From Escherichia phage vB_EcoP_PE007: DNA of 64,000 nt. The stretch is from sequence record OQ938542.1; one strand, given 5' to 3'. Shown one piece after another: positions 25,150-27,169 of the stretch (its first letter is position 1; each line of letters starts with the position of its first letter). The position numbers were made by a program, and so were the translations under genes. The notes under the pieces were generated by a model. The model made no database searches. It was not told where the DNA came from and was given only the letters and a program-made list of their open reading frames with translations.

Positions 25150-25320
25150 ATGAACAAATTTACTATTCACTGGCTCAATGGGAAGGTTAGTTCTTTCATG
25201 GGTGGAGAACCCGTTGAAGGAAAGAAAGCATTTCACATTGAATCGGAAGGCTGCAAAATCTTAGTACCATATGCTTGGTATAAAGAGGGTGAAGTAGAAG
25301 CATTAAAAAAGAGTAGTTAA
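25150..25320 (+). CDS. small hypothetical protein
   Basis: ATG 25150 with gagg RBS; last ORF before the ORF-poor locus. Confidence 0.4.
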   Translation: MNKFTIHWLNGKVSSFMGGEPVEGKKAFHIESEGCKILVPYAWYKEGEVEALKKSS

Positions 25321-26267
25321 TATCGTGAAGGGTTCTGTTAGAATCCTTTGAGATAGGAACTCCTATCATAACCTTTCTTATCTTAATCTTTGCCGTATGG
25401 CACTGACGCTAGGGTTGATGCCCATCCGTCAGGTAGACTATTTTAAGAATGGGTTATCACAGAAAATGTAAAGCAACATTCGGGTTAATCAATGGCCTCT
25501 CCCTATAGGGGCCATTTCTGAATCTTAGGCTATATCCCAAAGGTTAGTATCTTTAGGATAAGGCTTCAGATCCCTTATCAACTAACGCTCATGTTGAGCA
25601 CAACATTAACCAATAATGTCGGATAGTTCGTTATACTATTCATCCAGCATTGAGATGTTAGGTCTTACATGTAAACTAAATCATAGGGTAAAGAGGGACT
25701 CGTCATCCCTCCCCTATTATGACATCCTATCAATGAGTACATTAAGCTAACGTGCGGAGGTTTACACTGTAGCCGGTGTAGGTGGAGAAGACGGCAGGGT
25801 AGCTACCTGTGCTTAGTGTACTCTTTGATAGTTTTCGTAAGCGATTATGCGGTTTTTTAGAAATGAACCAATAACATAAATGCAAACGATGATGTTGTTC
25901 TGATGGCGGCGTAATAGCCTGTAAGTCAGCAAGGTCTTCCGACTCCTTGTAAGCAAATTCGGCGCAGTGGCCCGCTGTGATTAATAATGGGCACACAACA
26001 GGTAAGAGCATTTAGGCTACTGAGAAATCATCCGAGGCAATCAGACCTATCTTCTGTTAAGTGCTCTTTCCGTTGTGGTGAATGTGCAGGCTGATGCGCA
26101 GTGGGACGTGGCTGACTCACGAGGATGGCTCAAGCGAATAAGCAAGCTCGACGCCGCCGAATAAGCGCCTTATGCCGGAGATCAGTACCGGCCACCACAA
26201 CAAGTCCAGACGATATCTGAGTGACTATAAAAACAGATGGAGCCAGGTGGAATCCCTGGCAATTAAT

Positions 26268-26334
26268 TCCGGTGTAGGTACTAGCGTTGTGCACAAACGT
26301 GAGTGTTCTGGTTCGAGTCCAGACGCCGGAACCA
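26268..26334 (+). ncRNA. tRNA-like element (degenerate or D-arm-less tRNA with encoded CCA)
   Basis: 7-bp acceptor tccggtg/cgccgga (one GU), T-arm tctgg-TTCGAGT-ccaga, anticodon-like arm gcgtt-gtgcaca-aacgt, discriminator A plus CCA; no D-arm, so only about 64-67 nt. Confidence 0.3.
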
Positions 26335-26405
26335 ATTCAAAGTAGCATTGCACTAATCCATCCCGGAGTTCAAAGGCCAAACATGGAGCAGTGCTACTTT
26401 GAATT
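26334..26405. repeat. long inverted repeat (14 bp perfect, about 18 bp with one mismatch)
   Basis: aattcaaagtagca at 26334-26347 pairs with tgctactttgaatt at 26392-26405; left arm overlaps the CCA end of the tRNA-like element. Confidence 0.6.
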
Positions 26406-26779
26406 AGAAAGATTATGGGGGTAAGTCGTAACCATACGACGGCGTAAGTACCAGATGAGACTTCTGGACGCCCCTACCAGATTTGGGGTGTAACAGTTAA
26501 ATCCAGTTGCCGGAAGTGCTATTCTAGATACGCTGCCAATGTGTGAACGGTAAGGCTGTACAGGACTCGGACTCCCGCCTCAAACCAAAGTCGCCAGGTA
26601 CTTATGGCAAACGGGTAGTAACGAACTAGTCATTCGTCAAACGCCCACCCTATTATGAGTCAGCAAGAACGCCTTCACTTAAACTTAAACAATATAAGCT
26701 TAACGCAATAATTATGTAGGGGTATGTAAGGATTGCGAAGAAGGAGCCAGTTAAAGTCTGGCATGACTCACTCATTTAT

Positions 26780-26853
26780 GCCCACTTAGCTTAGACGGGG
26801 AAAGCAACCGACTAATAATCGGAAGGTCACTGGTTCAAATCCAGTAGTGGGTA
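26780..26853 (+). tRNA. tRNA (hand-folded anticodon AAU; identity uncertain)
   Basis: Acceptor gcccact/agtgggt (7 bp, one GU), D-arm gctt/aagc, anticodon arm accga-ctaataa-tcgga, 5-nt variable loop, T-arm actgg-TTCAAAT-ccagt, discriminator A; 74 nt. Confidence 0.65.
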
Positions 26854-27080
26854 CTTATTAATAGAGAACATAGTCCTGATTGCATTGCACTCTAAAGACA
26901 ATGCCGGTGAGACAGTCCGGCACTCTAATTATTGAAAACATACCTAACGGTGTGAGTATGAGCAGACTATAATGCTCAATTACAGTTAACTATTATCGGA
27001 CTATCAATCCTGTTTGCTGGTACAAGCACCGGTGGTAATAGTTAACTGGCCTAGCCTCGTTAGCTGCGTTAAAGCTACTA

Positions 27081-27105
27081 AGTCCCTCTTCGGAGGGACT
27101 TTTTT
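27081..27105 (+). terminator. rho-independent terminator closing the tRNA/structured-RNA locus
   Basis: agtccctc-ttcg-gagggact followed by T5. Confidence 0.75.
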
Positions 27106-27169
27106 ATTTGAGTATTGATGAACGCAATCATGCTTAAGTACAAATTCAAACCACTCTATGAGGCTAATA

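Follow-up and report, generated by a model that had tools for sequence, protein, structure and literature searches.

Here, we show by comparative analysis that the N4-like coliphage DNA under study, a stretch of 64,000 nucleotides referred to below as the window, carries on its plus strand a structured RNA element, E1, that retains a message domain of the tmRNA type, with a resume context, a constrained tag frame, a stop codon enclosed by a P5-like helix and a pair of pseudoknots. The first ~33 nt of E1 are antisense to nt 68-107 of host tmRNA, which is established as sequence complementarity and without interaction data, and the element has no tRNA-like domain. Horizontal spread has carried this conserved and structured plus-strand element into many families of enterobacterial phages, and E1 represents an RNA family missing from Rfam. 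The positions of E1, its parts and the neighboring features are given in Table 1.

A search of 50,697 phage records found E1 in 483; among 5,426 complete E. coli genomes, 157 (~3%) carry it in prophages. The element is almost never annotated. Its carriers include N4-like, Vi01-like, FelixO1-like, ~46-kb sipho- and HK620-type phages, with 70-97% identity across unrelated phage families. In HK620 the element is flanked by pR'/qut on one side and the tQ terminator on the other. Bas80, Vibrio pYD38-A, Moogle and Erwinia M7 each have a sigma-70 promoter whose end lies 6-7 nt upstream of the 5' arm. Short "hypothetical protein" calls that cover E1 in several phage records are likely spurious. No description of an E1-like element was found in the literature searched, which does not prove that it is unpublished.

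Table 1 Features of the non-coding locus and of E1 (positions are those of the window)
Feature	Position	Strand	Description and support
S0a, hairpin-rich non-coding element	25321-25585	+	Gamaleyavirus-specific; begins at the stop codon of the upstream gene
Hairpin	25491-25516	+	51-nt stretch 25480-25530, z -1.9
Stem-junction module	25728-25826	+	13-bp closing helix 25735-47/25810-22, two inner hairpins; -37.9 kcal/mol, z -3.35
E1, ~375-nt structured RNA	25827-26201	+	Comparative analysis
E1 5' antisense arm, GAUAGUUUUCGUAAGCGAUUAUGCGGUUUUUUA	25827-25859	+	Complementary to E. coli tmRNA nt 68-107
E1 linker ending AUAAAU	25860-25881	+	22 nt vs 21 nt (69-89) in E. coli tmRNA
E1 tag frame, GCA AAC GAU GAU GUU GUU CUG AUG GCG GCG UAA	25882-25914	+	Encodes ANDDVVLMAA-stop
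E1 P5-like helix around stop codon	25900-03/25926-29	+	94.8% of cells paired
E1 pseudoknot a	S1 25930-34/25945-49, S2 25939-42/25959-62	+	99% of cells paired
E1 pseudoknot b	S1 25963-67/25975-79, S2 25970-73/25989-92	+	Covariation
E1 long helix H-L	26004-12/26060-68	+	99.5% of cells paired; 5/9 pairs changed on both sides
E1 3' module	26072-26201	+	Closing helix 26072-80/26193-201, hairpin A 26084-99, variable region, hairpin B 26174-92
E2a, conserved spacer	26203-26267	+	Two small hairpins; fold z -1.5
Hairpin	26242-26260	+	65-nt stretch 26203-26267, z -1.5
E2b, tRNA-like element	26268-26337	+	Three-arm fold, -24.1 kcal/mol, z -2.1
Long near-perfect hairpin	26335-26407	+	-27.9 kcal/mol, z -6.2, 0/200 shuffles as good
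E3 block	26484-26576	+	98% identity to N4
tRNA-Ile, unusual anticodon AAU	26780-26853	+	ARAGORN; Rfam tRNA (RF00005) 64.8 bits vs threshold 29
Hairpin	26903-26921		36-nt stretch 26895-26930, z -2.7
Intrinsic terminator closing the locus	27080-27105	+	9-bp G+C-rich stem, UUCG loop, T-run; z -3.3

The tag frame of E1 has neither a start codon nor a Shine-Dalgarno sequence. Its resume context, AUAAAU-GCA, is invariant in the BLAST-derived E1 homologs, and the linker retains U(-5) and A(-4), the equivalents of U85 and A86, which set the reading frame of tmRNA (PMC2481249). All 127 homolog matches (122 unique sequences) have exactly 10 sense codons. The tag frame is open in 122 of 122 sequences, the other two frames in 4 and 29. 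Variation concentrates at the third codon position (codon-position entropies 0.56, 0.43 and 0.92). The last tag codon is GCC in 60, GCG in 42, GCT in 19 and GCA in 1 of the sequences. A stop codon is always present and is interchangeable among TAA, TAG and TGA, and the encoded tags follow the consensus AN[DE]xxx[L]x[AV]A. The frame is thus under coding-type constraint, as shown by its substitution pattern and not by translation data.

Covariation was tested on named structures, after an all-against-all screen had proved too noisy to read. Over the 22 pairs tested, 95.5% of cells were paired, as compared to 36-49% in slid controls; 17 of these pairs showed double changes, and none of 500 shuffles reached the observed values. 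In the P5-like helix, 40 sequences have GC and 27 have AU at pair 25903-25926. Pair types alternate likewise in both stems of pseudoknot a (S1: CG42/UA31, GC39/AU30 and AU61/GC10; S2: GC58/AU14 and AU61/GC11), and pair 25967-25975 of pseudoknot b occurs as CG, UA and GC in 53, 10 and 9 sequences, respectively, with S2 of this pseudoknot being lengthened by paired insertions in some lineages. Helix H-L encloses a hypervariable insert, which in some homologs contains T-arm-like hairpins. The helices of the 3' module are conserved yet nearly invariant, with one covarying pair in hairpin A. In most homologs the loops of this module are mutually complementary (GCUGAU with AUCAGC); the hairpin B loop of the window reads AUCAGU, leaving one G-U wobble in the loop-loop pairing, and in Pseudomonas phage CF81a both loops have changed jointly to GUCGAU/AUCGAC. 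The 3' module also occurs without arm and tag, and FelixO1-like E1 lacks it. A single-sequence minimum free energy fold (z -1.2) is uninformative for E1 because the structure is pseudoknotted.

The region of tmRNA matched by the 5' arm reaches from the 3' strand of PK1 through the A-run and U85/A86 to the resume codon G90-A92 and on to codon 6, with 29-32 bp of complementarity. Most of this target region is unpaired in tmRNA. Nucleotides 79-89 lie between PK1 and the coding sequence, and both PK1 and the coding sequence tolerate alteration without loss of function (PMC2481249). RNAduplex places the arm of the window at tmRNA nt 67-108 with -32.9 kcal/mol (z -5.9), which none of 1500 dinucleotide shuffles equaled. 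The reverse complements of two other arm variants align to tmRNA 67-106 with z 10 and differ from it at 1-2 aligned positions, gaps aside; taken by itself, the window variant aligns with a z of just 3.3. For 30 of the 34 arm variants the best tmRNA site lies at nt 74-107, insertions, where variants carry them, contribute pairs with intervening tmRNA bases, and FelixO1-like arms match a different sub-block (AAAAUAG) within the same target. Predicted pairing of the arm amounts to -34 kcal/mol with host tmRNA vs -17 kcal/mol with the message domain of E1 itself. The arm is essentially constant although codons 3-6 of E1 vary, and by itself it has no stable fold (z -0.3).

Several observations limit how far this complementarity can be interpreted. 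Duplex energy is not unique to the arm, since values down to -31.9 kcal/mol against tmRNA are also obtained with G+C-rich control windows taken from the locus, and because these controls score almost as well it was not used as a stand-alone statistic; we relied on composition-matched shuffles, reverse-complement alignment and the recurring target site. Covariation of the arm with particular hosts did not emerge. The arms of Vi01 and PhiSH19 match the E. coli target and a provisional Salmonella target sequence to a similar degree. A contig scan for the host target guessed from one divergent arm (L094) returned only chance matches in coding sequences; ARAGORN found no tmRNA at the four scan loci checked, and the two that were inspected are protein-coding. 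In Ackermannviridae the 5' half of the arm is locked in a ~27-bp hairpin with the upstream leader, and in HK620 about 230 nt precede the arm; RNA processing must therefore be assumed. In FelixO1-like E1 the linker match fails (18 nt vs 8 nt).

The absence of a tRNA-like domain rests on several lines of evidence. ARAGORN called no tmRNA in the window or in the examined subset of E1 loci, only tRNA genes, and no T-loop was found in the HK620 stretch between pR' and tQ. In four lineages promoters abut the arm. A PK1 pseudoknot 5' of the resume codon is likewise absent; in its place, the arm folds weakly and is antisense to host tmRNA. E1 reached the Rfam gathering threshold of none of the tmRNA models (RF00023, RF04321, RF01850). 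In the window, tmRNA_permuted scored 31 bits (E 6.5e-4; threshold 47), beta_tmRNA also matched, and a second tmRNA-model score was 18.6 bits (threshold 84), with 20-22 bits in HK620 and T765; these sub-threshold matches to three tmRNA models coincide at one spot in the window, HK620 and T765. GOLLD, ROOL and other Rfam phage RNAs gave no match at E<=10 in these same three sequences. We also tried to read the locus as a full tmRNA whose 5' acceptor, GCCGGUG at 25771, would pair with 26188-92 or 26324-30. This reading was rejected because the upstream segment is missing in the close relative nithesis and in all distant homologs, and because promoters abut the arm. CCACCA at 26192-97 was likewise rejected as a free 3' CCA end, since these bases pair with GUGGUG at 26075-80 in a conserved helix.

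E1 lies in a locus that an earlier note, made from the sequence alone, had described as free of convincing protein-coding ORFs between 25321 and 27110, and this claim held, as no credible ORF was found. The flanking CDSs end at 25320 and begin at 27158, and the longest ORFs in between, 89 aa (minus strand, 25742-26011, overlapping conserved RNA) and 57 aa, are not convincing. A gap of 1.8-2 kb exists at the equivalent site in 7 of 7 related Gamaleyaviruses and in N4, and not one small ORF is conserved across the homologous loci. The earlier note's canonical tRNA (26780-26853) was confirmed by ARAGORN and Rfam, and its terminator (27081-27105) also held, with a stem at 27080-27101 followed by the T-run. 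Its second tRNA-like element (26268-26334) held as a fold, without a tRNA call by ARAGORN or Rfam. The three hairpins it listed (25491-25516, 26242-26260 and 26903-26921) are all present, each modest on its own. The hairpin at 26335-26407, absent from that list, is far stronger than any of them. The suggestion that the plus strand may encode more structured RNA than the tRNAs alone is supported by the covariation-backed helices and pseudoknots of E1, although the tmRNA-like element itself, the main content of the locus, had gone unnoticed. tRNA, tRNA-like element, terminator and E1 all lie on the plus strand; the proposed dedicated transcription unit was not shown to be a single one, because expression data are absent. 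The idea was to be refuted if covariance models found only the one tRNA. This is formally the case, as ARAGORN and Rfam at curated thresholds returned tRNA-Ile alone in the window, but the outcome is misleading because the sub-threshold tmRNA matches and the comparative analysis reveal a conserved family missing from Rfam.

The remaining modules differ in their distribution. Homologs of S0a are limited to 57 Gamaleyavirus-type records and are near-identical among 8 phages that are otherwise 15-20% divergent; RNAalifold predicts 95 pairs, of which just 1 shows a compensatory change, and an extended -10 promoter-like site (25317-25344, TTAATA-16-TG-TAGAAT) lies at the start of S0a. Directly 5' of the E1 arm, the stem-junction module may be a processing signal that generates the 5' end of the arm, a possibility that is only inferred. 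A helix with a 3' strand motif of the AGUGCUCUU type is found just upstream of the arm in 55 of 122 homologs, and a sigma-70 promoter occupies this position instead in 27. E2a is common to N4 and some Klebsiella, Shigella and Salmonella phages. E2b consists of a 7-bp acceptor stem, a short anticodon-like arm with the loop GUGCACA, a GGUUCGAGUCC T-arm and an ACCA end; it lacks a D-arm, its canonical parts being the acceptor and T-arm only. ARAGORN did not call it a tRNA, the Rfam tRNA model did not match it even at E<=10, and its C:G at pair 3:70 sets it apart from alanine-type acceptors. E2b is 92-100% conserved in 106 N4-like records, among them N4, which lacks E1; one record labels it tRNA-Undet. 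E3 shares ~81% identity with Klebsiella, Enterobacter and Pantoea phages of ~150 kb. tRNAs have been gained and lost at this site among relatives, with tRNA-Ala and a pseudo-tRNA-Cys in ECBP1 and four tRNAs in N4. The region contains more terminator-like (5 observed vs 1.6 expected) and promoter-like sites (8 observed vs 4.1 expected) than expected. The locus as a whole could be a non-coding RNA island assembled from exchangeable modules with E1 as the main component; together with the mechanism proposed below, we give this slightly less than an even chance of being right.

We propose that E1 is a phage RNA derived from tmRNA, which would base-pair with the tmRNA of the host and put its own tag template in place of the host's. 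The evidence leaves this proposal just short of even odds, as it is inferred without expression, end-mapping or interaction data. Briefly, the arm would anneal to host tmRNA along a mostly single-stranded stretch that runs from the 3' strand of PK1 through codon 6, and the duplex would conceal the frame-setting U85/A86 and the resume codon of the host. The E1 strand would exit the duplex beside tmRNA nt 67, placing its own resume codon ~22 nt further on, as compared to 21 nt in the native molecule. The alanyl-tRNA-like domain of the host, together with SmpB, might then deliver the E1 template to stalled ribosomes, where loading of a template tethered by an intermolecular helix is unproven. Rescued chains would receive a phage tag (...LMAA or ...LAVA) and not ...ALAA. 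The other modules (tRNA-Ile, E2b, hairpins) would be a source of processing sites and of further small RNAs, and the unit would stop at the 27080 terminator. With a tag template of their own and a tmRNA-antisense arm, phages may therefore block or re-program host ribosome rescue. In a bolder reading, a mobile E1 docks on host tmRNA to form a hybrid host-virus two-piece tmRNA, by which, in infected cells and lysogens, ribosome rescue would write a virus-specified tag or at least fail to write that of the host; we would lean slightly against this version. What a phage would gain from a tag swap is unclear because the phage tags are still degron-like.

The main rival, which remains possible, is that E1 does no more than inhibit or sponge host tmRNA by antisense pairing. 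The arm would block the host resume region and slow or stop tagging, the frame would never be translated, and the body would either draw off tmRNA-binding factors (S1, SmpB, RNase R) as a decoy or simply stabilize the RNA. This hypothesis rests on the same antisense evidence, has a precedent in the phage-borne tmRNA inhibitor of DS6A (PMC4131195; PMC11915505) and does not depend on the loading of a template in trans, which is unproven. However, it leaves unexplained why an exact 10-codon frame is open in all 122 sequences with variable third positions, why an interchangeable stop codon is ever-present and why U(-5)A(-4) is retained. It is unlikely that E1 works independently of host tmRNA, with an arm that pairs with its own message domain as the relic of an inverted duplication, and serves as a selfish mobile module or in an unrelated role such as late-leader regulation in HK620. 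Arm and own resume region are partially complementary (CUUUGCGG vs CCACAAAG, -17 kcal/mol), the window-type arm and its own region have changed jointly, and E1 is highly mobile and modular. Yet self-pairing is weaker than host pairing in 73 of 73 sequences, E1's own sequence has a C.A mismatch exactly at the host's G, and the arm remains matched to the host codons even as codons 3-6 of E1 change freely.

Two further alternatives are very unlikely. One holds that E1 is the coding piece of a phage two-piece tmRNA whose acceptor is a nearby tRNA-like element, either E2b in the window or an element upstream of E1 in Klebsiella phage T765. Such elements without normal anticodon arms do occur near E1 in both genomes, the T765 element (L004 989-1054) is a weak tRNA-Sec match, and permuted two-piece tmRNAs are known (PMC11915505). 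Against this, E2b is found in N4 without E1 and E1 in hundreds of phages without E2b (106 vs 483 records), no tRNA-like partner accompanies E1 in HK620-type prophages, the two acceptor strands of E2b are both local, with C:G and not G:U at pair 3:70, and no complementarity between E2b and E1 was found. The other, to which we give as little credence, regards the locus as an ordinary phage tRNA island with decaying tRNA/tmRNA debris that has no function beyond the tRNA or, in a variant, as a site of hidden small protein genes as annotated in nithesis and Bas96. It draws on the turnover of tRNAs at this site among relatives (ECBP1, N4) and, for the variant, on the 30-45-aa CDSs that automatic annotation places here. 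Debris would, however, not be expected to retain compensatory pairs, a frame fixed at 10 codons and 70-97% identity between unrelated phage families, and the mini-CDSs run on both strands over covarying helices and are not conserved as ORFs.

Trans-translation is the chief bacterial path of ribosome rescue and quality control, and certain phages, e.g., lambda-immP22 hybrids, need it in plaque assays (PMC2481249). An RNA family that both mimics and targets tmRNA would, if confirmed, represent a new viral takeover of host translation quality control, residing without annotation in well-studied HK620, Vi01-like, FelixO1-like and G7C/N4-like phages. Should the template swap prove true, the tRNA-like and message-like functions of tmRNA can come from different organisms, which bears on the evolution of two-piece tmRNA and offers a natural tool for tag re-coding. 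Existing phages and a simple non-stop reporter would suffice for a direct test of the hypothesis, and the minimum outcome is a new RNA family for genome annotators.

Among known systems, GOLLD and ROOL resemble E1 as long, pseudoknotted, unannotated phage RNAs that commonly lie next to tRNA genes, but they have no tag frame and no antisense arm. AgvB and AsxR of EHEC prophages are phage-encoded anti-sRNAs, i.e., short sponges, whose complementarity to host non-coding RNA is short and often 5'-terminal. E1 differs from them in its length of ~375 nt, its conserved, translatable-looking frame, its pseudoknots and its target, tmRNA. Mycobacteriophage DS6A encodes a tmRNA consisting only of the tRNA-like domain, thought to interfere with host trans-translation (PMC4131195; PMC11915505). 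This RNA and E1 are both phage-borne fragments of the tmRNA system, yet they are opposite halves, as the DS6A RNA has the tRNA-like domain without a coding sequence and is thought to titrate SmpB and not to act by antisense pairing. With one-piece tmRNA (SsrA, RF00023), E1 shares the resume codon GCA preceded by U(-5)A(-4), the lack of a start codon, an AND-type tag of ~10 residues with hydrophobic residues followed by alanine at its end, a stop codon within a hairpin (helix 5) and H-type pseudoknots after the frame. Unlike one-piece tmRNA, it has no acceptor stem, T-arm or CCA end, carries an arm antisense to host tmRNA in place of PK1, is phage-borne, often with its own sigma-70 promoter, and scores below every tmRNA threshold. 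The best Rfam match of E1 is the two-piece permuted tmRNA of alpha- and beta-proteobacteria and cyanobacteria (RF04321), in which, as proposed for E1, template and acceptor reside on two base-paired RNAs. The two pieces of that tmRNA derive from one gene and pair via the acceptor stem and P2, whereas the partner of E1 would be a complete host tmRNA, paired via the message region of the host.

The locus at 25321-27110 encodes E1, a conserved, structured and horizontally mobile phage RNA. When Rfam was scanned permissively, two models matched below threshold at 25811-25963, namely tmRNA_permuted (31 bits, E 6.5e-4) and beta_tmRNA; the matched stretch CAUAAAU GCA AAC GAU GAU GUU GUU CUG AUG GCG GCG UAA reads as a tmRNA-style tag, ANDDVVLMAA. 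By BLAST, E1 is 70-97% identical to very different phages, and E1 taken alone was found in 483 of 50,697 phage records. Carriers include Gamaleyaviruses and Klebsiella KP8-like Schitoviridae; Ackermannviridae (among them Vi01, Ag3, SKML-39 and PhiSH19); FelixO1-like Ounavirinae (among them Erwinia phiEa21-4 and M7); siphoviruses of ~46 kb; the lambdoid HK620 and HK633; and Cronobacter, Pantoea and Vibrio phages. Prophages with an E1 match occur in 157 of 5,426 complete E. coli genomes, in none of which PGAP annotates anything over E1, and a pattern scan of IMG/VR returned at least 120 stretches. The E1 of many virulent phages is part of the tRNA cluster or adjoins it, in the orientation of the tRNAs. 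In HK620 (L003 1201-1580) it lies in the late-operon leader, downstream of the late promoter pR'/qut and upstream of the terminator tQ; because of this position, we infer that it would be a constitutive short late transcript, a counterpart of lambda 6S RNA, made in lysogens.

The phage from which the window derives infects E. coli and belongs to the Schitoviridae; it is an N4-like Gamaleyavirus of the G7C/ECBP1 type. The earlier note's observation was confirmed as a whole. Its claim of a stretch without a convincing ORF held from the CDS end at 25320 to the CDS start at 27158, and an equivalent gap of 1.5-2 kb, 3' of SSB/RuvC-like genes and 5' of the genes for a gp48-like protein and the virion RNA polymerase, is present at the same place in all seven relatives examined and in N4. 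The canonical tRNA and the terminator were likewise upheld. The second proposed tRNA-like element, E2b, was called neither by ARAGORN nor by the Rfam tRNA model, yet folds into an acceptor and T-arm. The strong hairpins exist; those listed are singly unremarkable, and a stronger one lies directly 3' of E2b. The locus as a whole is a mosaic (BLAST).

Features of the locus in window coordinates
Feature	Position	Strand	Observation
S0a	25321-25585		~265 nt, non-coding, near-identical in 8 Gamaleyaviruses 15-20% divergent elsewhere
E1	25827-26201		~375 nt
E1 5' arm	25827-25859		GAUAGUUUUCGUAAGCGAUUAUGCGGUUUUUUA
P5-like helix around stop codon	25900-03/25926-29	+	covariation
H-type pseudoknot	25930-62	+	covariation
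H-type pseudoknot	25963-92	+	covariation
Long helix around hypervariable insert	26004-12/26060-68	+	5/9 pairs compensatory
E1 3' module	26072-26201	+	two conserved hairpins, complementary loops
E2b	26268-26337		tRNA-like, without D-arm, encoded ACCA end
Hairpin	26335-26407		very stable, near-perfect, 17 bp plus; z -6.2
Conserved block	26484-26576		98% identity to N4, flanks unconserved
tRNA-Ile	26780-26853		anticodon AAU, 64.8 bits (ARAGORN, Rfam)
Terminator	27080-27105		

The P5-like helix and the two pseudoknots of E1 were evaluated on 73 distinct aligned sequences, with slid 3' partners and 500 shuffles as controls. Jointly, they are 95.5% paired, as compared to 36-49% with slid 3' partners; double-sided changes affect 17 of their 22 pairs, and 170 compensatory cells were observed versus 7-25 in the slid controls, values attained by none of the 500 shuffles. 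Both loops of the 3' module have co-changed (GCUGAU/AUCAGC to GUCGAU/AUCGAC) in Pseudomonas phage CF81a, where the module stands by itself. The 3' module is absent from FelixO1-like E1, and the core of E1 therefore consists of arm, tag, P5 and pseudoknots. In Pseudomonas phages the module also occurs solo, without arm or tag, for instance in CF81a (L154 700-816), inside an annotated 'hypothetical protein'.

The tmRNA-type tag frame of E1 is under selection. It begins at GCA, without a start codon, comprises exactly 10 sense codons in 127/127 homolog matches (122 unique sequences) and ends in every homolog with a stop codon, be it TAA, TAG or TGA. This frame is open in all 122 unique sequences, the other two in only 4 and 29. 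Third codon positions are the most variable (entropies 0.56, 0.43 and 0.92), and all four synonymous forms of the final alanine codon are used. Tag variants include ANDDVVLMAA, ANEEMYLAVA, ANDDLMLMAA, ANDEQFLAVA and ANDNTFLAVA; the FelixO1-like tags, from homologs identified by BLAST alone, are ANDNVFLAVA and ANDAQFLAVA. The six bases 5' of GCA are invariably AUAAAU, so that U(-5) and A(-4), which correspond to U85 and A86 of host tmRNA, are retained. For frame choice in E. coli tmRNA, A86 is essential and U85 contributes (PMC2481249).

E1 has no tRNA-like domain and is not a tmRNA. ARAGORN called only tRNA genes and no tmRNA in the window and the subset of E1 loci examined, all Rfam tmRNA scores for the window, HK620 and Klebsiella phage T765 were far below threshold, and the HK620 sequence as far as tQ is devoid of a T-loop. 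Bas80, Vibrio pYD38-A, Moogle and Erwinia M7 have good sigma-70 promoters (TTGACA-17-TAGATT, -TATAGT, -TAATCT) that end 6-7 nt before E1's conserved 5' end, and a promoter of that kind was found in 27 of 122 E1 loci. A conserved CCACCA, considered as a free end, was ruled out as it is one strand of a helix.

Several individual loci deserve separate mention. The long-helix insert of L046, L095 and L027 (alignment columns ~45-135) includes a hairpin like a T-arm (GGGUUCGAAUCCC or GGUUCGACUCC), so that helix and insert resemble a tRNA-like domain whose 3' end is not free; L011 and L124 have a 3' stretch like a tmRNA T-arm plus acceptor strand (CAGCUCCAC). About 150 nt 5' of E1, T765 carries an uncalled tRNA-like element (L004 989-1054) with acceptor GGCGAAG/CUUCGCC, T-arm GGUUCGAUUCC and no proper anticodon stem, whose sole match is a weak tRNA-Sec (17.7 bits). 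In nithesis (L001 1570-3121) and Bas96 (L159 470-1966), many CDSs for 'hypothetical proteins' of 30-70 aa are annotated on both strands of the RNA locus, overlapping even covarying E1 helices; these automatic calls are likely spurious.

The 5' arm of E1 is antisense to host tmRNA, which is shown as sequence complementarity and not by interaction data. With E. coli ssrA from MG1655, the window arm pairs with tmRNA nt 67-108, GUAAAAAGCCGCAAAAAAUAGUCGCAAACGACGAAAACUACG (-32.9 kcal/mol, z -5.9; equalled by 0/1500 dinucleotide shuffles), a target that covers the PK1 3' strand, the 11-nt AAAAAAUAGUC element and the tag frame start (numbering from PMC2481249). Some G+C-rich control windows match this duplex energy on tmRNA, and by alignment the window variant, taken singly, reaches only moderate significance (z 3.3). 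Reverse complements of other arm variants align to tmRNA 67-106 with z ~10 and 1-2 differing aligned positions besides gaps, and in 30 of 34 variants the best duplex over the whole tmRNA falls at nt 74-107.

Four kinds of change in the arm are informative. Insertions of the CACGUUA type add pairs to the intervening AAC codon; the window-type change from GCGACUUUG to GCGAUUAUG moves pairing from GUCGC+CCGCAAA to AUAGUCGC+CCGC; FelixO1-like arms have lost the PK1 block and gained CUAUUUU, which pairs with AAAAUAG; and at 25830 either A or G would pair with U105 (alignment read by eye, not computed). Host-specific covariation of arm and target was sought among the arm variants and could not be shown. 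The arm alone has no stable fold (z -0.3). It prefers host tmRNA over E1's own message domain (median -34.4 versus -17.2 kcal/mol; host better in 73/73), because E1's own codons 3-6 are freely variable and its own PK1 3' strand reads CCACAAA versus CCGCAAA in the host. In Ackermannviridae the 5' half of the arm lies within a ~27-bp hairpin with a target-like leader, possibly for self-masking of the arm or as an RNase III processing site, and the window and HK620 have a stem-junction module 5' of the arm; the model thus has to assume processing. In Vi01 (L160 236-346) and T765 (L004 1097-1206), the leader is a copy of the tmRNA target (GAACGAAAAGCUGUUUG) and lies ~80 nt upstream, with hairpin energies of -45 and -41 kcal/mol.

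Gamaleyavirus relatives differ by an inserted tRNA-Ala, a pseudo-tRNA-Cys, a duplicated tRNA-Ile and a swapped pseudoknot region 3' of the tag; arm and tag are kept in 7/7. ECBP1 (L002 2188-2360) keeps arm, tag and P5 helix, with a different pseudoknot-like segment 3' of the stop, a pseudo-tRNA (anticodon ACA) after the stop codon and a tRNA-Ala(CGC) inserted 5' of the arm, at the equivalent of window 25713-25720. Elsewhere in the locus, S0a is predicted to be strongly structured and densely hairpinned, is too conserved for covariation, follows an extended -10 promoter-like site (TTAATA-16-TG-TAGAAT, 25317-25344) and is absent outside the genus Gamaleyavirus. E2b is conserved (92-100%) in Gamaleyaviruses, Klebsiella N4-like phages and N4 (L007 ~1566-1636), and is labelled tRNA-Undet in one record. 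It is independent of E1, since N4 has only E2b and most E1 carriers lack it. An 8-nt repeat (26330-26337) flanks a ~118-nt insertion that several relatives carry where E2b meets the adjacent hairpin. The conserved block, of unassigned function, further shares ~81% identity with Klebsiella, Enterobacter and Pantoea phages of ~150 kb. The anticodon AAU (A34) of the phage tRNA-Ile is unusual for bacterial systems, whose tRNA-Ile usually reads GAU; a second, degenerate tandem copy is present in some relatives, for example nithesis and 24-32N.

We propose, in the absence of expression or interaction data, that the arm anneals to host tmRNA and covers the resume codon together with U85/A86. Beside tmRNA nt 67, the E1 strand would then exit the duplex and offer its own U(-5)A(-4)-GCA 22 nt on, versus 21 nt in native tmRNA. 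The charged host tRNA-like domain and SmpB might thereby carry the E1 template to ribosomes that have stalled, and rescued chains would receive the phage tag. The main alternative is that E1 only inhibits tmRNA, its tmRNA-like body serving as decoy or stabiliser; this reading does not account for the coding-type constraints. For the proposed tag swap, a benefit is not evident because the phage tags retain the degron-like end. ClpX and SspB are known to recognise the tag.

Rfam 15 contains no E1-like family, and in full-text literature searches we found described neither a tmRNA-like phage RNA that lacks a tRNA-like domain, nor the E1 tags, nor any RNA antisense to tmRNA. We regard E1 as a new kind of element, with the caveat that only its sequence supports the inferred action on tmRNA. 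The phage tmRNA genes known so far are complete ones in mycobacteriophages, Bacillus phage G and Streptomyces phages and, in DS6A, a form with only the tRNA-like domain (PMC4131195, PMC11915505). E1 represents the opposite case, tmRNA-like but without this domain.
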